Assembly (NCBI GenBank): GCA_977020255.1
Contig: CDROCS010000121.1
Coordinates: 1-64,000 of the forward strand
Direction of reading: 5' to 3'
Length of the DNA: 64,000 bases
Source: Obrimoposthia wandeli
Lineage: Eukaryota
Shown: one piece after another, positions 5,572 through 30,729 of the stretch
How positions within the stretch are numbered: the first letter of the stretch is position 1
Layout: each line of letters starts with the position of its first letter
Notes under the pieces: generated by a model
What the model was told of the DNA's origin: nothing
The model's input: only the letters and a program-made list of their open reading frames with translations
The model's database searches: none
Made by a program: the position numbers and the translations under genes

Positions 5572-6536
5572 GCTGAAAATATCAAATCGTGATTGGTTAT
5601 ATATTTCTATAATAGGTACATTATTTGGGTTTTTTATATCTGTATTTTTTTACTTTTTACATGAAACGTTTCGTGATGTGTCAACTGTATTATTTGGAAC
5701 TTGTAGTGCATTTTTTATCACACTATTTTCTTCAATATTTATATCTGTATCTAATAAATATATTCTGCCCAATCTTAATGAAAAATTTTGGTATATAATA
5801 AGTTTTTTATTTTCCTTTTTAAGTGGATCTCTGGGTTTTTTATTTACTTATTCTTTATTTTATATAATTGAAACTAAGATTACCAATATTATTGAACCAT
5901 ATAGTTTATATCTAACATTAACTATTGGTTCATTAACTTTTCTTATAGGACTGATTCTTCATCAATTCATCTCTATGAAATATAAAAATGAATCTATTAA
6001 AAATGAGATACTCAATAGTAAAATTAAAACTTTAGAAAATGAACTTAATCCTCATTTCTTATTTAATGCATTAAACTCAATGAGTGAATTAGTATATATA
6101 TAGATCCTAAAAAGCTGAAGAGTCTATTTTAAATCTATCAAAATTTCTAAGAAATGCAATCAAAATAGATAGTTTAATAAGTATAAATAATGAGCTGGAA
6201 ATGGTGCAAACATATGTAGATATTGAAAATATACGTTTTGACGATAAAATAAAACTACATATATCAAATGCTCATACTATTTATAGTCAAATACCAAAGT
6301 TCTCTATTCAATTACTTGTTGAAAATGCGATTAAACATGGCTATGAAAATAAAGAATTAAATATATTTATAGAAATAAAGCAAGAAATTACAGTATATAA
6401 TGATGGTAAGATAACAAAAAACTTAAAATTTGGTACAGGATTATCTAATTTAAATAATAGATTAAATCTCCTAAATATAGGGAAATTAAAATTTATTGAT
6501 GATAAAAAAATGAAATTTATAATAGAGGTAAAGTAA
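5558..6536 (+). CDS. LytS/YehU-family membrane sensor histidine kinase; one frameshift near 6100 joins ORFs 5558-6103 and 6201-6536
   Basis: About five TM helices, then ELNPHFLFNALNS (His_kinase), IQLLVENAIKHG and GTGLSNL HATPase motifs; adjacent LytTR regulator. Confidence 0.85.
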
Positions 6537-7250
6537 ATGAAAATATTAGTTGTAGATGATGAAAGACTTGCAAGTTCGAGGATGACACGAATTTTAAATG
6601 AACTGGGTTATGATAATATTACTGTTTTTAATGATAGTACAAAAGCAGTTATCAATATAACTAGAAATAAATATGATTTAGTATTTTTGGATATTCAAAT
6701 GCCTAACATTACAGGACTTGAATTGGCTAATATGATATTAGAAATTGAACCAAAAACATTTATTATATTTCAAACTGCTTATGAGGAGTTTGCTCTTGAT
6801 GCCTTTAAAGTTGGCGGAGTTGATTATATTTTAAAACCAACTTCTAAAGAAAACGTATTACAAAGTATAAACAAAGTAAAAAGATATATGGAAGTAGTAC
6901 CAGAAGTTCAAACAAAAAAGATTATTGGAAAAAGAGGTGATAAAATTTATCTCATTGAACTTGAGGATATATTTTATATTAAAGCAGATTTAGATGAAAT
7001 TATTATTAGAATAAAAGATGCCGATGTATATGTACGAAAAAAAATAGGAAATATGGCAGAGCTTTTAAGTAATCAAAACTTTTTTAGAATTCACCGTTCT
7101 ATTATAATCAATATTGATAAAGTAAAATCGATGCAAAGTGTTGAACAATCAAAATTACAAATATCGTTTACTGATATAGATGATATAGTTACCAGCTCAA
7201 AAGATGGGGCAAAAGATTTTAGAGACTATTTAGAGAGAAGTAGTTTATAA
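6537..7250 (+). CDS. LytTR-family response regulator
   Basis: REC domain (VVDDE, FLDIQMP, TAY, KP) plus LytTR C-terminus FFRIHRSIIIN; intact and abutting the kinase. Confidence 0.92.
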   Translation: MKILVVDDERLASSRMTRILNELGYDNITVFNDSTKAVINITRNKYDLVFLDIQMPNITGLELANMILEIEPKTFIIFQTAYEEFALDAFKVGGVDYILKPTSKENVLQSINKVKRYMEVVPEVQTKKIIGKRGDKIYLIELEDIFYIKADLDEIIIRIKDADVYVRKKIGNMAELLSNQNFFRIHRSIIINIDKVKSMQSVEQSKLQISFTDIDDIVTSSKDGAKDFRDYLERSSL

Positions 7251-7284
7251 AATCTTTAAAGATTAAACTTAAATGGTATTAAGT

Positions 7285-7815
7285 TTAGTCTTTAATTATA
7301 GTAATCACAAGCTCCCCTACAGTAAATCCAAATTTTTTCATTTTTGAATGATTTAAAATCACTCCATCTTCTTGTAAATGAAGCCAATCTTTTACATTTA
7401 TATCTATTGTAGAATCATTGTACGGTACTGTCATTGTATAATCAATCATCACAGTGTTTCCATTAGCAATCATTTGTGCTTCACCTACAATATCACCTGC
7501 TGTTCCTATAAAATTTTTATCACCTGTTGGAGTTAATGTCCAAACTCTAGTTTGTTTTTCACCATTATCATACACAAATTTTTCATCTAATGTTCCAACA
7601 CCATTTTTATCCCAAGAACCTACTAAATGACCTTTGAAAGTTTTGATAATTTTTCCACTTCTATCTTTTACCATTCCATAGGCTGTTAACTTTCCATTAA
7701 AATATTTTTGAGGAATAAATTCTGGTCCTTTATTTGTAAAGTCTTCTATTTGCATTGTTGAACATCCTGTAAAAATTAAAAGTATTGTACTTAGAAATAA
7801 AGTTTGCAGTCTCAT
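7285..7815 (-). CDS. DUF3833-family lipoprotein
   Basis: Lipobox FTGC; YFNGKLTAYGMVKDRSG, DVKDWLHLQ pattern; last gene of the ufa-like operon. Confidence 0.8.
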   Translation of the reverse strand: MRLQTLFLSTILLIFTGCSTMQIEDFTNKGPEFIPQKYFNGKLTAYGMVKDRSGKIIKTFKGHLVGSWDKNGVGTLDEKFVYDNGEKQTRVWTLTPTGDKNFIGTAGDIVGEAQMIANGNTVMIDYTMTVPYNDSTIDINVKDWLHLQEDGVILNHSKMKKFGFTVGELVITIIKD

Positions 7816-21409: not shown

Positions 21410-22622
21410 ATGAATAACTACATCCCACACCTGAGTAAATTTGATCCAGATTCAAATGGACATTTCGGAATATTCGGAGGACGTTATGTTCCTGAAACAC
21501 TTATGCCTATATTGTTAGAACTTGAAGAAAGTTATAATAAATATAGATTTGATGAACAGTTTTGGGAAGAGAGTGAAATCTATCTTTAAAAAGAGGAGTA
21601 TGGCAAGAGTAGACCCAATCCTCTTTGTTTCGCTCCAAATATTAGTAAAGAAATAGGGCTAAGGTATATTTAAAAAGAGAAAGATTTAAGGAAAAAATCA
21701 CATACTGGTGCTCATAAAATAAACAATGTTATAGCACAAGGTGTAACCAAAAAAGACTTGGTAAAACAAAAGTTATTTAGAAACAGGGTGCAGGACAACA
21801 TGGTGTTGCAACAGCTACTGTTTGTGCTCTTATGCGGTTTTAGAGTGTACTATTTTTATGGGTGCAAAAGGCAACGTCAAGAACTTAATGTTTTTAGAAT
21901 GAAACTACTAGGTGCAAAGGTTGTATCAGTTGAATCAGGAAGTAGATCTTTAAAAGATGCAATGAATGATGCAGAATTCAGTTTTTGGGTTACAAATGCT
22001 AGAGATACTTTTTATATCATTGGGACGTTGCTAGGTCTCATCGCAGCTCTATGATGTTAAAGAGATTTTCAAGCTATCATTGGTTGGGAAACAAGACAAC
22101 AAATTCTTGAAAAGAAAATGAGCTTCCTGATAAAGTTATCGCTTGGTGGTGAATTGAGATCTATGCTATTGGTATGTTTTCACATTTTTTAGAGGATGTT
22201 GATGTAGAGTGTATTGGAATAGAAGCTGGTGGTCATGGAATCGAAACTGATATGCATGGTTGTAGTTTGAAAAAAGGAAGTCCGGGAGTATTACATGGAC
22301 AATGTTCTTATTTATTGCAAGATGAAGATGGACAAGTACAAGAAGCACATTCTATATCTGCTGGATTAGATTATCCAGGAATTGGACCTGAACATAGTTT
22401 CCATAATGATTTAGGTAGGAAATGATAATCACTGATGATGAAGATGGATGCATTTGTATGGTTAAGCCAAAAAGAGGGTATCATACCAGCTTTGATCAGA
22501 ATCATGCCATAGCATATTTGAAAAAAGCTAAAGAAACATTACAAGGTAAAATAGTAGTTATCAATCTATCTGGTCGTGGTGATAAAGATATACAACAAGC
22601 AAATGAGATTTTTAAATTTTAG
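21410..22622 (+). pseudogene. trpB: Tryptophan synthase beta chain, heavily frameshifted
   Basis: [74 protein letters not shown]. Confidence 0.9.
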
Positions 22623-22689
22623 TTTCATTAATTATTTGACGAAGAACATTGGTAAATAGACATCTTCTAAATTTTCAAAAAGTTAGATA

Positions 22690-22872
22690 CGTAAGAGTAT
22701 AACACCTCAAAAAAAGCAGACAATAATTTCTAAATTTCAATTAACAATAAAATTTAAAGGGTAGAAAATGAGTCGAAAAAGAACTACATATAGTACAGAA
22801 TTTAAAACAAAAATAGTATTGGAAGTTTATATTACACCTAAAAACCAAGACAATTTTTTACTTGCTAAGTAG
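22690..22872 (+). mobile_element. IS3-family remnant (left end plus the first ~20 codons of OrfA)
   Basis: ORF 22768-22872 begins MSRKRTTYSTEFKTKIVLEV, typical of IS3 OrfA HTH starts, then breaks off; no OrfB follows. Confidence 0.6.
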
Positions 22873-23179
22873 TTTTTGTATATTTTGTATCTTGTCTTGC
22901 AAATTCTTTTACAAATTGATCTCTCAATGCCACAGGTCCATTTATAATTTCTATAAAGAATTTTGAATCTTCTTTGAATCTAAGTTCTTTCATTATGTCA
23001 TCTATATCTTTTTCTCTAAAAGAACTGGTCATGACAAAATCTAAATCAAATGAGGAATAAAATTGTTTGGTGTATATCTCCATACACCATCCACCGGATA
23101 ATACAGCTATATAATTCTTGTCATCTAATTTTTGACATACATAAGCCGCCAACTCTTGTATATTAAAATTACTTAGCAT
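22865..23179 (-). pseudogene. Truncated nucleotidyltransferase-fold protein
   Basis: ELAAYVCQKL..AVLSGGWCMEIYT..YSSFDLDFV carries a GG/DxD NTase motif; the C-terminus is cut where the IS remnant ends. Confidence 0.6.
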
Positions 23180-23530
23180 GTGTAATAGCAGGACTATAAT
23201 TTGTATTGTGTGAGGATTGATATTCTAGAGGTTTATCTTTTTTCGTGAAGCTTCCTCTTTTATTGTAATCATCGAGTTCTTCTATTAAGTCTTCTTCATA
23301 TGCAGATTTGGCTCTTTTTAGTAATTGTAACAATTCTTTGTAGAAAGGGTATCTTTTGTTTAATTCGTAGAATCTTGTGTTTCCTATCGTTTTACCGATA
23401 AGGATATTACCATCTTCATATTTAACAATTTGTTTTTTACACCTGATGTGGATATCTTATAAAATCTTGAAATCTCTCTTATATAACAGTTATATTTAAA
23501 TGTCAAGATAGTGATATATTATGTACCTTT
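23169..23530 (-). pseudogene. Frameshifted winged-HTH regulator overlapping the NTase start (absent from the ORF track)
   Basis: Manual translation gives CYIREISRFYKISTSGV / KQIVKYEDGNILIGKTIGNTRFYELNKRYPFYKELLQLLKRA...KDKPL; stop at 23169-23171. Confidence 0.55.
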
Positions 23531-23740
23531 GCTTTTTATCTATTGGTGTACAGCAGAATCAACTGTGGACATTATATTTCATATGAATTAAAAAATGGAG
23601 TATATTGTATAAACACATTGTCACTGCAATTGTCAAAAAAGAAATTTTGTTATCAACAAATCAAATAATCTCTAATACTTTAGTAAAGTGTGACTATTTA
23701 TGTGACATTCTTTTTGTATAATAGCAAAAAAAGGGCATAA

Positions 23741-23854
23741 ATGAATGAAATAAAACTAGTATCAAGATGTGTTAATTCTTGGTTGGATAATTATATGAAG
23801 GCTAAGAGTTATAGTGATGTTAGAGATACTGTTTTGAAGATTAAGGGGGTTTAG
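23741..23854 (+). CDS. Small ORF (37 aa, MNEIKLVSRCVNSWLDNY...)
   Basis: AAGGG RBS, TATAAT at 23717-23722, stop 3 nt before the next gene; function unknown. Confidence 0.35.
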   Translation: MNEIKLVSRCVNSWLDNYMKAKSYSDVRDTVLKIKGV

Positions 23855-23857
23855 GGG

Positions 23858-24907
23858 ATGAGTTTTTTGAATCAATTTGTATCCAAAGTAACTCCTACAA
23901 TGGCAGTTTCTGTAGGAATTATACTCCTTATATCTAATGAATCAAAATTTGCACTTCGAGAGATTGGTTTAGATGCCACAGGGATTGCCGTTTTACTCTT
24001 AATTACAGGGGGTGTTGTGCTTATATTATCTTATTTACAATCTGCTAAAAAGGATAATGTATCAAATGACAAGACAAGTTGGGAAAATATACAATATTAT
24101 AGTTTTAATGAAAATAAAAATGATAAAAGTAGTGATTTTTCATTTGAAGCAGAGAAACGTAAAATCATTAAAGAATCACAATATTTAAACGAATTAAGAA
24201 AGAAATCATTAAGCTCAGAATTAGAAGAGTCTGATAAAGAAAAAATCATACAAGATACTATTAAAGAAAATAGTGCAGAATCCATTAAAACAATTTTTTC
24301 ACAACAGGTTTCTGCTTTTACTAAGCAAATAACTGAATTTATTGGTTTAGAATCAATTAGAAATTCTTTTAATACTATTATTGGTCGCTTGCAAAAAGAA
24401 ATTAATGATTTAGGACGGAGAGCCAATGTTAATTTAATATTAGGTATAGCAATTAGTGCTTTTGGAATTTATGTATTAGGTGATGGTATTGATATATTTA
24501 AAGCAAATACTATCTTACCCATTGATACAGAAGTACAACCTCTCATTCAAAAAAATATAACAAGTACATTGATAGAATTATTACCTAGGTTTTCTTTTGT
24601 GTTTGTTATTGAATTATTTGCCTATTTCTTTTTAAAGTTATATAAAAATGGACTAGATGAAATTAAATATTTTCAAAATGAACTTACAAATGTAGAATCA
24701 AAACTTATCTCTATAGAAGTGGCATATATCACAAAAAATGATGCTTCTATGAAAGAAGCACTTGATGTACTAGTAAAAACAGAAAGAAACTTTGTTCTTA
24801 AAAAAGGTGAAACAACAGTTGAGCTGGAGAAGGCTAAGTCTGAATCTGAGAGTATGAAAGCTATTATTAATGCTGTTCCTAGTTTGTTTAAGCAGAAGGG
24901 GAGATAG
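23858..24907 (+). CDS. Hypothetical membrane protein (about 4 TM, coiled-coil middle)
   Basis: 349-aa clean ORF with two hydrophobic pairs; C-terminal YFQNELTN and ERNFVLKKGETT segments. Confidence 0.8.
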   Translation: MSFLNQFVSKVTPTMAVSVGIILLISNESKFALREIGLDATGIAVLLLITGGVVLILSYLQSAKKDNVSNDKTSWENIQYYSFNENKNDKSSDFSFEAEKRKIIKESQYLNELRKKSLSSELEESDKEKIIQDTIKENSAESIKTIFSQQVSAFTKQITEFIGLESIRNSFNTIIGRLQKEINDLGRRANVNLILGIAISAFGIYVLGDGIDIFKANTILPIDTEVQPLIQKNITSTLIELLPRFSFVFVIELFAYFFLKLYKNGLDEIKYFQNELTNVESKLISIEVAYITKNDASMKEALDVLVKTERNFVLKKGETTVELEKAKSESESMKAIINAVPSLFKQKGR

Positions 24908-24910
24908 GGG

Positions 24911-25686
24911 ATGAGCGATATAAAAGGTTTTGGAAATTCTGCAAAAGATTTAGCAAAAAATCCTTTAGGTATTATTGCATTGTTTATATTATTAGTATAT
25001 GGTTTTGCTTGTCTGTTATTTGGATTTTCAGCTGAAAAACTAACGTCTGAAGAAAGAACACCTATTATTTGGTTTGTAGTAATATTTCCAGTAATTGTTT
25101 TAGGTATATTTGGATGGTTAGTGTCACGACATCATACTAAGTTATATGCTCCTAAAGATTTTCAGAATGAGGATAATTTTGTTAATTCATTACATCCCAA
25201 AATTACTCAACCGACAACACAACTAAAAATGAATGAAGAAGTTGAATCACTTCTAAAACAAGGTGAAAATTCTGTATTATTAAATACACAAATTGATGTG
25301 ATTAATGTTGATATAAAAAAGAAAAAAATAGAACCAATTGGAACGCTTAATGAAATACTTATAAAACAATTAGCTATTGCTCAGATAACAACATCATTTC
25401 ATGATATTTTTCATTTTATTTTTATGTCTCAAATTGAACTGCTAAAAGATATTAACTCATCTAATAAAGGTTTAAATGAAGAAAAAATAAATATGTTTTT
25501 TGAAAATAAAAAGAAAGATACTGTCCTTAAAAAAACAGAATTAAAAGATTATATTGGCTTTTTAACTGCATTTGATTTAATTAAGAAAGATGGGTCAGAA
25601 TATTATAAATTACAGACAGAGGCAGTGAGTTTTTAAGTTGGCTAATACTAACTAAATATGATGAAATGATTTCAAAACCACTTTAA
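24911..25686 (+). CDS. Hypothetical 2-TM protein; probable frameshift near 25608, true stop likely at 25686
   Basis: N-terminal NPLGIIALFILLVY / LYAPKDF TM hairpin; a shifted frame after the A-run continues TDRGSEFLSWLILTKYDEMISKPL*. Confidence 0.75.
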
Positions 25687-26063
25687 TAGATAAGTATAGT
25701 CGATACATTGAGTTTGAAGACATTTTTTTGACTAAGTTATCTCCAAATCTATAAGATGTACATACATCACCTGATTTAGTTTCTGTTGTAGTGAAATATA
25801 GCTAAAGTATAAAGAAATAGAGTTGATTATGTACTAAAAGTGATTAAATATTATATGGAACAACTCACTTTTAATTTAAAGTAGAAAGTTTTAATAAATT
25901 ACAAATCACTAACTGTATATAATGCCTTTAGAATAAAATTACTTTTTAGTAAAACTTATTTGGAGTAGCATCATGGATAGAAAAATGATTTAAAACCCAA
26001 GTTAAGTAGAATATTATGTATTTAAATTCTAGAAAATTAAATAAAAGGGAATTTGTAATTTAG

Positions 26064-26645
26064 ATGGCAGAATATAAAATCAAAACAGAACAATCCCATT
26101 ATGCAAATTTAAAAAGACAATTACAACAAGACTTTTCTGAATTAAAAAAAGTTTTTGAGAAGAACTCTAAAAAAAGTAAAGTTAGTAAACCTATTTTTAA
26201 TTCATTTCAACAAGAAATATATGAATACATAACGACGGCAAAAATATCTGCAGTATTAAAAATAACAAGAGAAGATAAATCTATCATTAATGTGCATATA
26301 GAAGATGGAGATGATAAAAAAGGTTTAAAACATATTTTACTTAGACATTATGGTAAAAATGAAGATGGTACAGATAAAGAAGGTGAAATATTTGCTAGAG
26401 ATATTATAAACTTTGCAAATGTTATAAAATTTGGTAGAGAATTAACTGATGCTGAGATAAATAAAGATAGTAAAGATTTAATAGGTTTTGCTTTTGAAAA
26501 GAATAAACATCTGAATAAACCAGACGATAAAAAAGAATTTTTCAAAGTTTTCTTACTTCCACAAGATAATGGTAGTCACACTGTAACTTTTTTCTGTGCT
26601 GATAATAAGGGGAATAAAACTAAAGAAAATGGAACTTCTCCTTAA
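26064..26645 (+). CDS. Hypothetical protein, candidate BECR/PBECR-like ribonuclease
   Basis: Clean 193-aa ORF; GDDKKGLKHILLRHY resembles the G-L-x-H-I-x-x-x-H motif of PBECR/DUF3519-type domains (recognition, not a search). Confidence 0.55.
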   Translation: MAEYKIKTEQSHYANLKRQLQQDFSELKKVFEKNSKKSKVSKPIFNSFQQEIYEYITTAKISAVLKITREDKSIINVHIEDGDDKKGLKHILLRHYGKNEDGTDKEGEIFARDIINFANVIKFGRELTDAEINKDSKDLIGFAFEKNKHLNKPDDKKEFFKVFLLPQDNGSHTVTFFCADNKGNKTKENGTSP

Positions 26646-26752
26646 TAGCTCTTGACCAATTGTAGGTCTTCTCTTATAAAAGAGTAGCATTTGCTAAGGG
26701 TCGAAGTTCACGCTATTTGATAGTCCGGTAACAGTAAGTGGGCATATCATTG
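26631..26752 (-). ncRNA. Candidate structured antisense RNA overlapping the 3' end of 26064-26645
   Basis: Nested pairings: GAACTTC 26632-38 / GAAGTTC 26703-09; CCTTA 26640-44 / TAAGG 26695-99; GACC 26654-57 / GGTC 26665-68; CTCTT 26671-75 / AAGAG 26680-84; minus-strand TATAAT at 26763-26758. Confidence 0.4.
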
Positions 26753-26757
26753 AATCT

Positions 26758-26790
26758 ATTATACATAAAGTAATTTAAAAGTAATTTAAA
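26758..26790 (-). promoter_or_regulatory. Sigma70-type promoter firing toward the candidate RNA
   Basis: TATAAT preceded by a tandem TAAATTACTTT repeat (plus-strand AAAGTAATTTA x2). Confidence 0.45.
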
Positions 26791-26836
26791 TTATATTATA
26801 TAATATAAAATGATTTAATATTATATTTTTTAAAAA

Positions 26837-27019
26837 TTACTTAAGTATTACCAATTCATCTAAATAACCACTCCACCAGTTAACAATAACACTCATATCT
26901 TCTATATTATTGGCTCTGTTATATGCACCTTCAACATCTCAATCTACTTTATGAGCTAATATTCTTTCTACAAATTCATTTTTGAGATTGAACTCTTCTT
27001 GGTGTGAATTTATATTGTG
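26837..27019 (-). mobile_element. Tyrosine integrase C-terminal remnant with an in-frame stop
   Basis: Manual translation EFVERILAHKVD*DVEGAYNRANNIEDMSVIVNWWSGYLDEL matches the LAH...AYNR...WW..YLD tail of P4-type integrases. Confidence 0.75.
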
Positions 27020-27048
27020 ATGATAAAGGTGGTGATTATTAGGATAAA

Positions 27049-27067
27049 GGTGTACTTTTTGGTGTAC
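27049..27067. repeat. GGTGTAC direct repeat (12-bp period), arm-type integrase-site-like
   Basis: GGTGTAC at 27049-55 and 27061-67, between the rnpB 3' end and the integrase remnant. Confidence 0.45.
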
Positions 27068-27122
27068 CTTAGATATTTAAATTGATTATATTTACTTTAG
27101 ATAAATGATTTGTTGTCAGTAA

Positions 27123-27460
27123 AAGGTACAACGATAAGCTGAGTTTTGTAGTTAGCAATAATTTATCTACTTGATTTGTTACCAAATCAATCTAGCGAAG
27201 AGCCATCATCGTGAAGCTTATACCATCTCTTCTTGCTGCCTGGTTGGGTTTACATAACTGTAATGATTACTCAAAACATTGGTAGGCTCTTACCCCACCG
27301 TTTCACCTTTGCCTCATATCTATCCAAGATTGAGGTAGTTTACTTTCTGTTGCACTGTCCCTTAGGTTACCCTAGCCATCAGTTAGATGGAACCATGCTT
27401 CACAGCAGCCCAGACTTTCCTCTTGAACTTTGCAGTTCAAGCTATTGCTTGTCGTACCTT
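27123..27460 (-). ncRNA. rnpB: RNase P RNA
   Basis: GAGGAAAGTCTGGGC, AGTGCAACAGAAAGTAAACTACC, GGTGAAACGGTGGGGTAAGAGCC, ACAAAACTCAGCTTAT conserved regions; P1 pairs AAGGTACGAC with GTTGTACCTT; TATAAT at 27472-27467. Confidence 0.95.
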
Positions 27461-27491
27461 TGTGGAATTATAGCTAATAATTATTAAATAT

Positions 27492-28022
27492 TTATTTTTT
27501 TATGATATCAAACTCGAAAGGGATAGTAAACTTGAAAATTTTACCATTAATTTGATGATTTTGCTTTACATTTTTAAACGAAATCACTACATTATTTTCA
27601 ATTTCATCTTTATATGCAATTTGTTGTAATATTTTATTTTTTAGCATTAATGAATACTGAACATTATTAAAATCAGAAGTGTATATATTGTCTGAAACTT
27701 TTGTTGCATTTTTAAGTAAGTTTAGTATGTTTATTTCATTATCAAGTTTTGTGATAATTGCTTGTTCTAATTCTGGTTCAATTATTGTTACTGTATATTT
27801 TTTAATATATACAAACTTTTCAATAGGGTCTAGGTATTGCCATTTGATTTTATTTGGTTCTTGAATATGTAATAAACCATTGTATATTACTTTATTTCCA
27901 GATGGATTTGTTATTGTTTGCATAAATGATGCTTCAAAAGTTTTTAAGTTTTTAAAATCATTTGCATTTAAAATGGAAGTTGTTATAAATAAAAAAATAA
28001 TTATTTTTTTAAAGTGAATCAT
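27492..28022 (-). CDS. lolA: Outer-membrane lipoprotein chaperone LolA
   Basis: Signal peptide, FEASFMQTITNPSG, IKWQYLDP, IIEPELEQAII, FKFTIP. Confidence 0.88.
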   Translation of the reverse strand: MIHFKKIIIFLFITTSILNANDFKNLKTFEASFMQTITNPSGNKVIYNGLLHIQEPNKIKWQYLDPIEKFVYIKKYTVTIIEPELEQAIITKLDNEINILNLLKNATKVSDNIYTSDFNNVQYSLMLKNKILQQIAYKDEIENNVVISFKNVKQNHQINGKIFKFTIPFEFDIIKK

Positions 28023-28136
28023 AGTTTGCCTTTGAGCTTATAGAATATCTAATAATATCATATTCTTATTTAATCCAATTTAATGACTTTATAATAATTT
28101 TTTAAATAAAATAAAATAATTAATATTAGGATATGT

Positions 28137-28448
28137 ATGAATACAGTTGAGTTACAAAACATTGCAGATGAATTAGATTTTGATTTAGAAGATGTTGAAA
28201 TGTTAATTGCAGTTTTTATAGAAAGTGTTACCGAGTCACTTGTATTATTAAAAGACGCAATTAAAGACAATAATTACGATGATATCTTTAAATCTGCTCA
28301 TGCTATAAAAGGTAGCTCTGCCAATTTAACATTAATGGAAATTTCAGACTTATCAAAAATAATAGAATCAGAGTCAAGAGAATCTAATGAAATAGATTAT
28401 CTAAGTTTATACAATAAACTTGATTTATTAATACAAAAAATAAAATAA
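28137..28448 (+). CDS. Stand-alone Hpt phosphotransfer protein
   Basis: SAHAIKGSSANL Hpt motif. Confidence 0.9.
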   Translation: MNTVELQNIADELDFDLEDVEMLIAVFIESVTESLVLLKDAIKDNNYDDIFKSAHAIKGSSANLTLMEISDLSKIIESESRESNEIDYLSLYNKLDLLIQKIK

Positions 28449-28452
28449 ATAT

Positions 28453-30729
28453 ATGACTACAAATATAATGGATAGTTTTTATCATAACACTGGTTGTGAG
28501 CAAATTAATTACAAGATATTATTGGTTGATGATAGTAAAACTTTTAATCAAAAGATTTCTGATGGCCTCACAATTTTAGGACATAAAGTTACACAATCTT
28601 ATACTTTAACTGAAGCAGAAAATTGTTTGAAAAATGATAGTTTTGATTTTATATTACTTGATCTGATACTTCCTGATGGAGAAGGTAATGAATTAATTGA
28701 CCTTATGGATAAAGAAACAAGAGCTAAAGTTATTGTTTTAAGTGGGGACAATGATCATCAAAGAAGAAGTCATATCTTTGAATCTGGAATTTTAGACTAT
28801 TTTTCAAAATCAAATCCTACTCATAAAATTATAAATGACGTAAAAAAACTATTGTGTACTGTTCAAATAAACTCTAAAATAAATGTTTTACTTGTTGATG
28901 ATTCTTCTTTTATGAGAAAAATGCTTACAAATATTCTTAGTCCTAAGAAGTTTAATATAATTGAAGCTATTGATGGAGAAAAAGGATTGGATGTATTATC
29001 TAAGACTGAAGTGCATTTGGTTATTTTAGATTATGAAATGCCTATAATGGACGGAATTCAGTTCATAGAAAAAGTAAAACAAAATATTGATTATTTGGAT
29101 TTGCCAATTATTATGTTATCTGGAAATGATGATAAAAATATTATAGCACGTGCTTTAAAAAATGGTGCAAGTGATTTTTTAAAAAAACCGTTTGCAACAG
29201 AAGAATTATTGTTAAAATGTGATTTACATGTTAAAAACTATTTAAATATAAAAATAATAAAACAACAAGATAAAGAGCTCATAAGTTCATTGGAAAAAAC
29301 CAAAGAAGCTGAACAACATAAGTCAATATTTTTGGCAAATATGTCTCATGAAATAAGAACACCATTAAATGCAATTATGGGTTTTGTTGATTTACTCGCT
29401 GAAGATGAAATTGACAAAGTTAAGAAAAACTATTTATCAACAATTCAAAAATCTGGTAGTATGTTATTAAATCTAATTAATGATGTACTTGATTTTTCCA
29501 AAATAGATAATGGGAAACTTGATATAAACAAAGAAATATTTGTTATCGATGAATTAATTGATCTTCTTGTTAGTTTATATTCTCCTATGATTGAAAAAAA
29601 AGGTTTAACACTTATTCGTAATATAGATCAAAATATTACAAAATATCTAAATTCAGATTTTTTAAGAATCAAACAAGTTTTGACTAATTTAATTGGTAAT
29701 GCGATTAAATTTACACCAAAAGGTGGTTCAATTACTATCGACGTATTATTAAGTGATGATAAAGACTCTGTTGTATTTAATGTGATAGATACAGGTATTG
29801 GAATTGATAAGTCAAATCATAAAAAGATTTTTGAATTATTTAGACAAGCAGAAAAAACAACAACAGAACACTTTGGTGGTACTGGTTTAGGACTGAGTAT
29901 TAGTGCCGAGTTAGTTAATTTATTAGGCGGTACTTTAGGAATTAAAAGTGAATTAACTAAAGGGAGTTGTTTTTATTTTGGTGTACCTATTGGTGATATA
30001 ACACATGATACTATTACTCATCATGAGGTTATCCAAAAAGAAAAAATCAAAAGAATCACTACTACCTATACTCAGCATGTACTACTAGTCGAAGATAACT
30101 TGACAAATCAAAAGTTCATGGAAATTATACTTTCAAAGCATAAATTAACTTTTGATATTGCATCCGATGGTCAAGAAGCGTTAAATTTATTTAGAAACAA
30201 TGATTATGATATGGTTTTTATGGATGAAAATATGCCCAATATGAATGGTATAGAAGCAACAAAAAAAATCAGGTTATTTGAAAAAGAAACAAAATCAAAA
30301 TATACTCCCATTATCGCATTAACTGCAAACGCCCTTATCGGGGATGAAGAACGATTCAAGCTTGCAGGGATGGATGAATATCTTAGTAAGCCTTTAAATA
30401 GAGAAAAACTAGCCGAGGTATTAGTAAAGTATCTTGATAGAAAAAGTGTATTTGATATGGTTGTTGAGACAAATGATAAACATACATTTGAAAAAGAATT
30501 TCTTTTAAAGGTTGCTTATCCAATTGAACTTATCGAAGATGCTATCAAAAATGAAAATTTTAATAGTATAGTGAAATATATTAATATTGTAAAAATTATC
30601 AGTATGAAATATAGTTATCAAGATATCTTTACTTTATGTTTAAATATAGAATCGAGTGCAAAAGACTCTGATATACAAAGTTGTAGAAATTTTTTATTAG
30701 TACTAAAGGGACAGTTCAATGGTATTTAA
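28453..30729 (+). CDS. Cytoplasmic hybrid histidine kinase (REC-REC-HisKA-HATPase-REC)
   Basis: LLDLILP, ILDYEMP, SHEIRTPLNAI, NLIGNAIKFT, GGTGLGL, FMDENMP; no TM segment. Confidence 0.92.
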   Translation: MTTNIMDSFYHNTGCEQINYKILLVDDSKTFNQKISDGLTILGHKVTQSYTLTEAENCLKNDSFDFILLDLILPDGEGNELIDLMDKETRAKVIVLSGDNDHQRRSHIFESGILDYFSKSNPTHKIINDVKKLLCTVQINSKINVLLVDDSSFMRKMLTNILSPKKFNIIEAIDGEKGLDVLSKTEVHLVILDYEMPIMDGIQFIEKVKQNIDYLDLPIIMLSGNDDKNIIARALKNGASDFLKKPFATEELLLKCDLHVKNYLNIKIIKQQDKELISSLEKTKEAEQHKSIFLANMSHEIRTPLNAIMGFVDLLAEDEIDKVKKNYLSTIQKSGSMLLNLINDVLDFSKIDNGKLDINKEIFVIDELIDLLVSLYSPMIEKKGLTLIRNIDQNITKYLNSDFLRIKQVLTNLIGNAIKFTPKGGSITIDVLLSDDKDSVVFNVIDTGIGIDKSNHKKIFELFRQAEKTTTEHFGGTGLGLSISAELVNLLGGTLGIKSELTKGSCFYFGVPIGDITHDTITHHEVIQKEKIKRITTTYTQHVLLVEDNLTNQKFMEIILSKHKLTFDIASDGQEALNLFRNNDYDMVFMDENMPNMNGIEATKKIRLFEKETKSKYTPIIALTANALIGDEERFKLAGMDEYLSKPLNREKLAEVLVKYLDRKSVFDMVVETNDKHTFEKEFLLKVAYPIELIEDAIKNENFNSIVKYINIVKIISMKYSYQDIFTLCLNIESSAKDSDIQSCRNFLLVLKGQFNGI

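Follow-up and report, generated by a model that had tools for sequence, protein, structure and literature searches.

RNA antitoxins are found in type I and type III systems. Type III toxins have MazF-like or HEPN folds, and in the type I systems txpA/RatA and bsrG/SR4 of Bacillus subtilis an opposite-strand RNA has a 3' overlap with the toxin gene, as in the module described here. Another RNase fold, BECR, is that of colicin D, RelE and the CDI toxins in general (PMC5512222; 10.64898/2026.08.28.747851). PBECR domains, which according to the accessible text of PMC5512222 occur in about a quarter of polyvalent proteins, have an active site made up of a helix His and a C-terminal Thr or Ser. The window, by which we mean the whole 64,000-nucleotide stretch of DNA that was analysed, is the first 64 kb of its contig and consists of bacterial DNA of ~27% GC. 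Its rnpB word matches Arcobacteraceae, Arcobacter and Sulfurospirillum sequences. The contig itself sits inside a 1.35-Gb, eukaryote-sized assembly and stems from a symbiont or a contaminant. A ~4-kb island, running from a broken trpB to rnpB, holds a nuclease gene and a structured RNA (Table 1), which the first-pass annotation had read as a possible protein-toxin/RNA-antitoxin module. The comparative predictions of that reading were borne out: a BECR fold, PBECR kinship, a covarying antisense RNA, convergent promoters and no protein antitoxin. Because a structured RNA gene invariably faces the predicted RNase, which has no protein antitoxin, and because the RNase gene is sometimes broken where the RNA persists, the module is probably an RNase toxin with an RNA antitoxin, its mechanism left aside, as judged from comparative sequence analysis.

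Table 1. Features of the nuclease-RNA module and its surroundings in the window.
Feature	Position	Strand	Basis or remark
Solo PBECR-like (BECR-fold) predicted endoribonuclease, 193 aa	26064..26645	+	long N-terminal helix, then core
Predicted active-site codons of the nuclease ORF	His90 26331-26333; His95 26346-26348; Thr175 26586-26588	+	
Structured RNA core	26629..26713	-	read 26713 to 26629
Core stem P1	26709-26703/26638-26632	-	pair probability 0.83 (fold of 26751-26622)
Core stem P2	26699-26694/26645-26640	-	pair probability 0.52 (fold of 26751-26622)
Core stem P3	26688-26686/26650-26648	-	in minimum-energy fold
Three-way-junction hairpins P4 and P5	P4 26684-26671; P5 26668-26654	-	pair probabilities 0.94 and 0.99
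Predicted 5' leader hairpin of the RNA	26718..26749	-	UGAUA/UAUCA stem; fold
Predicted 3' end: U-rich tail UUUUCUUU following P1	26622..26629	-	inferred from sequence and fold
Candidate convergent promoter	26758..26789	-	TATAAT 26763-26758, preceded upstream by an AT-rich 11-nt repeat in two copies; -35 consensus lacking
RNase P RNA gene rnpB, island border, outside the module	27119..27460	-	RF00010, 253 bits; sole Rfam match nearby
phrog_5157 and phrog_26238, two uncharacterised upstream island genes	23858..25636	+	428 nt before the nuclease gene

The GLKHILLRHY motif that the first-pass annotation had singled out in the ORF occupies residues 87-96. The ORF is intact in the contigs of run X1, which may be the source sample and whose long pieces carry no listed differences over either ORF or RNA element. 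A word-based search with the ORF found one homologue (85%, with identical last residues). The full protein scan gave 19 matches, 17 of which form one family of mostly 140-190-aa solo proteins; P0015 and P0016, spurious or chimeric, were removed from the homologue set. G82, G87, H90 and H95 are invariant across the family from the full scan, and the conserved site recurs in 36 nuclease proteins as His95 (35/36), His90 (34/36) and Thr/Ser175 (36/36). At the level of sequence, this His plus Thr/Ser signature fits the PBECR active-site pattern. Many solo genes (L009, L010, L014, L016, L021, L023-L031) have a TTG or GTG start, which would keep translation low. Single-sequence searches with the window ORF returned no homologue among longer proteins, none among plasmids and one weak match among phages. 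A search for related loci from the window sequence found none in genomes, metagenomes or viruses, and PADLOC, NCBIfam and PHROGs gave no family for the nuclease module.

An AF2 model of the nuclease from 23 sequences reached pLDDT 84 (a model from only two sequences, at pLDDT 40, was useless), with helices at 87-95 and 111-123 and strands at 140-145, 159-166 and 172-179 plus 62-80. This arrangement corresponds to the N-terminal helix followed by a 4-5-stranded meander that defines BECR/PBECR proteins, with modest scores. Among the best rows of the VIA comparison, the CdiA-CT 7m5f_C scored Z 6.4 (rmsd 3.3, 98 aligned), in the range that the tool calls common, and BrnT scored Z 5.0; we take both to be BECR proteins. 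Further rows held other CdiA-CTs, colicin D (4.2) and many RelE/ParE, with Z down to 3.5. Foldseek found nothing at E<=0.001 and likewise ranked 7m5f_C first (E 0.029), and the family profile matches that chain at E 0.009. Structure comparison agrees with the BECR fold suggested earlier, in that the best matches of the model are BECR RNases at modest scores. The proposed kinship to PBECR/DUF3519 also found support, in below-cut-off matches to PBECR1 and PBECR3 and in a family profile that matches Helicobacter-type DUF3519/ddrB-ParB domains. PBECR1 is matched by 5/18 relatives (E 7e-5 to 0.06, all below the Pfam cut-off of 27.6 bits) and PBECR3 by the L007 nuclease (19 bits, also under cut-off). 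The window ORF itself matches no PBECR Pfam model; it does match one domain of a prophage protein from Helicobacter cetorum in which PBECR3 is present as well. The N-terminal helix is basic in 26/28 homologues (charge +4 to +12), and the window nuclease is only mildly basic (+4 overall). We regard the ORF as a predicted solo PBECR-like RNase, as the model and the family signature suggest.

The first-pass annotation had described a GC-balanced, multi-stem element that starts inside the last codons of the ORF. The stretch 26632-26750 has 39.5% GC, whereas the ORF has 25.4% and the sequence right after the stretch 10.8%; this places it in the top 1.9% of 119-nt windows. The arms lie where they had been drawn: GAACTTC 26632/GAAGTTC 26703, CCTTA 26640/TAAGG 26695, GACC 26654/GGTC 26665 and CTCTT 26671/AAGAG 26680. 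TAGC 26685/GCTA 26693 is in place as well, as a plus-strand alternative that is absent from the minus-strand fold. On the minus strand the 83-nt core (26630-26712) reaches -22.7 kcal/mol (z -3.3, 2/300 shuffles as good), and on the plus strand -22.1 kcal/mol (z -2.3, 7/300). Because folding of the wider stretch 26620-26770 is not significant (z -0.8 and -1.4), the window sequence taken alone makes the fold no more than suggestive. The 3' arms of the core overlap, in antisense, the final 4-5 codons and the stop of the nuclease ORF. With the start set 7 nt past TATAAT, the predicted transcript would run from ~26751 to 26622 (~130 nt) through a 5' hairpin, the long P1-P3 stem and the junction with P4 and P5 to the tail UUUUCUUU. 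A sequence resembling the leader hairpin also occurs in a loose end of run X5. The minus-strand TATAAT and its upstream tandem repeat, also claimed earlier, are both there, the repeat being AAGTAATTTAA at 26768 and 26779. As a promoter the site is weak on its own, with no -35 consensus (best 9/12), no entry in the promoter scan and 163 occurrences of TATAAT in the 64-kb window; the promoters of homologues lend it support. No match over the element came from a tRNA and tmRNA search, nor from a Rfam 15 covariance search at E<=5 and 10 (window 22000-30000 and 19 homologous loci), which rules out these identities. Pseudoknot, ribozyme and tRNA-mimic readings were dropped after inspection of the alignments by eye, in which there was no consistent pairing and no anticodon-like loop.

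To follow the element beyond the window, a nuclease profile was run over four overlapping Campylobacterales samples, of which 21/184, 31/401, 16/353 and 14/250 genomes matched. In the first sample a GC-richer element lies directly 3' of 20/20 solo genes (one cut by a contig end); read on the gene's strand, it begins TGGAAG-like and finishes CTTCAC-like. The RNA behind Campylobacterota homologues is ~75-85 nt long and covaries. Over 19 loci, 84% of the antisense-strand cells are paired, against 74% after shuffling and 40-53% after sliding, and 13/21 pairs changed on both sides (0/500 shuffles); these shuffle controls ignore relatedness, and the consensus structure was drawn from members of the tested set. 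RNAalifold recovers P1 unaided, with 5/9 compensatory pairs, and a branched subtype has an extra covarying P4 (4/4 pairs). The P1 cells contain 29 G-U against 5 A-C and therefore identify the antisense strand as the RNA strand. A covariance model trained on these 19 loci (R1) matched 19/20 held-out solo loci, 16 of them at E<=2e-5, and 0/9 long genes. Paired cells and covariation score in the fitted held-out alignment exceeded shuffles; pairs changed on both sides did not (65/500). Thus the structural conservation behind homologues that had been called for is present as a covarying antisense RNA, whose models do not recognise the window RNA in searches of the whole window.

Association with the nuclease gene is equally visible from the RNA side. 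An RNA-first search of 151 genomes found the gene directly upstream of the RNA in 16/17 matches, as did 4/4 viral contigs found by RNA words. In a set of 35 loci (omitting two near-duplicates, one cut locus, four broken genes and an orphan RNA), 31/35 RNAs fold better antisense, and the RNA 3' end lies -2 to +10 nt from the nuclease stop in 32/35, with the core outside the coding sequence in most. The convergent promoters recur too: a facing sigma-70 site scoring at least 11/12 is present antisense in 19/32 loci and sense in 0/32, and with near-duplicates dropped in 8/17 against 0.18 expected. Several of these promoters stand just 8-12 nt from the RNA core, which marks the core as the minimal unit. 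The orphan RNA (L070 1501-1577, G080:C8:3784-3860) directly follows a P22-like portal gene, is accompanied by no nuclease gene and may represent a relic or a phage-borne mimic of the antitoxin. In L009, L010, L024, L025, L030, L075-L081, L084, L093 and others, another long hairpin is conserved between promoter and core; short forms lack it. Judged from sequence, the RNA family is uncatalogued, with some 45 loci at hand.

Whether the window RNA belongs to this family is a separate matter. R1 and a second model, R2, both built without it, gave no match to it at E<=10 over 64 kb; R2 restricted to 241 nt placed its best match exactly at 26713-26629 (7 bits, E 0.06). The window RNA shares the family's position, antisense strand, GUGAA...UUCCA ends, long stem to the junction and CC-loop-GG hairpin. 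Its identity to family RNAs has a median of 36% and a best of 47%. Family pairs whose proteins are as far apart (30-36% identity) have their 5th percentile at 44%, and most values for the window RNA fall under it. By end motifs alone, the element falls outside the top 15 window-wide and ranks 6th of 46 genes. The solo locus L083 is alike, with an 11/12 facing promoter, a multi-branch antisense fold and no model match. Since family layout and topology are shared but both models miss it, the window RNA is, on sequence comparison, a diverged subtype of the family or an independent analogue. For the analogue we draw a parallel with DUF3800 proteins, which several unlike RNA folds serve, as far as the accessible text of PMC5737381 goes. 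In low-depth contigs from three other studies, the listed changes lie in two hairpin loops (P4 and P5) and within or beside P2. Among the listed variants of the window RNA, one adds a C-G pair and one turns A-U into G-U (minus strand), and those of run X2 break two inner P2 pairs.

It is improbable that the element is no more than a terminator or a structure at the 3' end of the mRNA, or that the window copy is an unrelated chance fold beside incidental promoter-like words in AT-rich DNA. Such a reading would account for a window gene convergent with rnpB and a broken ORF, for P1 followed by a U-run, for a window promoter without a -35 and for family models that miss the window RNA. It sits poorly with a covarying fold of four to five helices that stays with the gene across unrelated contexts, and with a G-U bias and promoters confined to the antisense strand. 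In the window, moreover, the nuclease ORF is the only one of 46 genes with the CC-N6-9-GG inner hairpin in place and the best-folding of the 46, and no change among the variants listed in relatives from the three other studies falls in the P1, P3, P4 or P5 stems.

If the RNA does control the toxin, it may do so through the protein or through the message. Our preferred mechanism, which we hold tentatively and at close to an even call, is a BECR-fold RNase toxin held by a protein-binding structured RNA in a type III-like manner. The RNA would be made from the facing strong sigma-70 promoter, terminate through its own stem and U-tail close to the toxin stop codon, and dock on the nuclease at its active site or its basic N-terminal helix. 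Once the element is lost, or a phage shuts off transcription, the RNA would decay faster than the protein and free the RNase. Prophages, integrative elements and plasmids would in this way gain addiction or an abortive defence. Binding is favoured over pure antisense action because the multi-helix fold covaries, lies mostly outside the coding sequence, shows no start-region pairing and recurs per domain; the basic N-terminal helix of most homologues counts on the same side. Counted against binding are the convergent layout, which makes the RNA fully complementary to toxin-mRNA read-through, as type I needs, and the lack of repeats or toxin-processed units as in ToxIN.

A type I-like action is unlikely, although it has points in its favour. 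The convergent RNA would pair with the 3' end of the toxin mRNA and cause its destruction (e.g. by RNase III) or block transcription, and the fold of the RNA would make for stability and for recognition by kissing loops. In 35/35 loci the RNA is antisense and abuts the nuclease stop codon; it overlaps the last nuclease codons in the window, L016, L017 and L078, and the elements within long ORFs are wholly antisense to coding sequence. Bacillus txpA/RatA-type systems, with their 3' overlaps, also count for this reading. Known type I toxins, on the other side, are mostly small membrane peptides. Pairing with the toxin translation start was rejected for lack of a cognate advantage on either strand: cognate RNA/toxin start-region duplexes were no better than non-cognate ones, with ranks spread evenly over 29 loci, whose start codons were chosen by length and in at least one case wrongly. 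One antisense RNA per mRNA would also do, yet promoters recur per domain, and the junction, bulge and loop residues of the RNA are conserved. Helicobacter pylori does use an antisense RNA/RNase III antitoxin, IsoA1, according to the accessible part of PMC8322730.

We consider it quite unlikely that the RNA serves something other than toxin control, as a partner, substrate, decoy or guide of the nuclease, the last in an RNP aimed at phage or host RNA. RNA and protein do diverge together (Mantel rho 0.70, 0/2000), a correlation expected from linkage alone. PBECR domains have been proposed to target mRNA or crRNA rather than kill (accessible text of PMC5512222), and DUF3800, drum and skipping-rope are protein-linked orphan RNAs found on either strand (accessible text of PMC5737381). 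The RNA alignments, however, contain no variable guide segment or array, and the four loci with a broken nuclease gene and an intact RNA, together with the absent protein antitoxin, suit toxin control.

Returning to a toxin restrained by RNA, we considered PBECR domains that are extended or embedded in long genes. In the non-redundant set, an antisense promoter of at least 10/12 lies within 150 nt of the domain end in 9/20, against 1/20 for sense, 1/20 inside the domain and 0/13 further on, and GC behind the domains climbs from 36% to 46%. A 1051-aa ORF (L113) has four antisense sites of at least 10/12, three of which follow its three PBECR-type domains. The G400 genes with DUF3519, ddrB-ParB and PBECR2 have an antisense site after each of two nuclease domains (8/12 and 10/12). 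R1 and R2 had no match in the linkers of embedded domains, and linker folds behind 12 of these domains were mixed, with antisense z from -0.7 to -4.5 and sense equally strong in several. By eye, the H. cetorum prophage locus L002 shows GC-richer hairpins and minus-strand -10-like words behind its PBECR domains (~6265-6330, 7005-7080, 7240-7320); the third copy of the hairpin stretch is degenerate. In H. pylori, Table 1 of PMC8322730, as accessible, lists two Northern-validated antisense RNAs each for HP1116 (HPnc5970/HPnc6000) and HP0488 (HPnc2240/HPnc2250). HP1116 is jhp1044 (tables of PMC549213), the PBECR polyvalent protein in the accessible text of PMC5512222. The G400 genes are similar to HP1116, and in them an antisense promoter-like site follows each PBECR-type domain; R1 has no match in these linkers. 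The HP1116 and HP0488 RNAs are the sole experimental hint of transcription, and an indirect one. It is possible, and we offer this as a speculative generalisation rather than an expectation, that PBECR domains as a class carry their own opposite-strand RNA inhibitor right behind the domain, one per domain, even in polyvalent-gene linkers. To the idea that the RNA additionally steers the nuclease we give very little credence.

Viral copies of the module lie between terminase and head genes, and one copy is on the Aliarcobacter cibarius plasmid pACIB; the RNA match at the plasmid gene WP_151029499.1 scores 71 bits. Consistent with the first-pass annotation, no small antitoxin ORF stands beside the window nuclease and none is conserved beside homologues. 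Among the neighbours of 24 loci only integrases and near-duplicate contexts are common, with no conserved protein antitoxin of the type II kind, and the phrog_5157/phrog_26238 pair is not a conserved partner. Integrase-like genes adjoin rnpB in L003 and L004, and rnpB may therefore be an integration site in the group. In the window, trpB (21410-22622) is broken by several frameshifts and stops, which could reflect a pseudogene or an assembly error; the label "decayed island" thus needs care. Fragments of a nucleotidyltransferase-like gene (22865-23333, minus strand; weak Pfam Aminoglyc_resit, E 0.037) are possibly, with an upstream ORF, another decayed toxin-antitoxin pair. Another broken ORF (26850-27100, minus strand) lies between the RNA promoter and rnpB and shows many changes in runs X2 and X4.

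If the module works as proposed, a BECR-fold RNase with a facing structured RNA would be a third architecture of RNA-controlled nucleases, and would answer what protects PBECR producers that lack an immunity gene. Should there be one RNA per PBECR domain, a new class of protein-binding RNA antitoxin would be hidden in coding sequence. It would explain how phages safely make multi-RNase virion proteins and the H. pylori orphan RNAs opposite HP1116 and HP0488 would gain a function. An uncatalogued RNA family of some 45 loci is defined, and the proposal can be tested on the H. pylori antisense RNAs and on WP_151029499.1.

Compared with described systems, the nuclease is closest to the phage polyvalent PBECR domains of Iyer et al. 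2017 (PMC5512222; Pfam PBECR1-3, DUF3519), with which it shares the His helix, the C-terminal Thr/Ser and the occurrence of solo and fused forms; the accessible text of that paper describes no RNA partner or antitoxin. The present family differs from Pfam PBECR in scoring below cut-offs and in its long N-terminal helix. Type III systems (ToxIN, TenpIN and CptIN, and AbiF-RCd22 in the accessible text of PMC12373285) likewise have an RNase-type toxin, a structured RNA and no protein antitoxin, and sit in prophages and mobile elements. In contrast to these, the module has a predicted BECR fold, a single downstream opposite-strand RNA with its own promoter and no tandem repeats, and a binding that is predicted. 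AvcID is reportedly another type III-like comparator. The upstream co-transcribed tandem repeats of ToxIN, TenpIN and CptIN are absent, and Pfam, PADLOC and NCBIfam scans returned no such family. Type I aapA/IsoA of H. pylori (accessible part of PMC8322730) has an opposite-strand small RNA with a strong promoter, as here, whereas the toxin in our module is a 140-190-aa predicted enzyme, start-region pairing is lacking and the RNA is multi-helix and covarying.

The DUF3800, drum and skipping-rope RNAs (Weinberg et al. 2017, PMC5737381, as accessible) are also structured RNAs tied to one protein family, with a 3' terminator and on either strand; our RNA goes with a different protein in a fixed orientation and has no Rfam match to them. 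HRC-4 of Arcobacter sp. L (Stav et al. 2019, PMC6429828, 14 examples) shares the three-stem junction and the Arcobacter host, and may be the same RNA. Compared by description only, it is reported in the accessible text of PMC6429828 without particular gene context, whereas the context of our RNA is fixed. A search of the openly accessible literature retrieved no paper that links an RNA to PBECR genes, and the accessible parts of 10.64898/2026.09.22.753630 and 10.64898/2026.08.28.747851 do not describe an RNA-PBECR module. Because the defining tests of the named RNA-antitoxin families fail here, the module is set apart from them and files as an RNA-antitoxin variant that would work like type III or type I.
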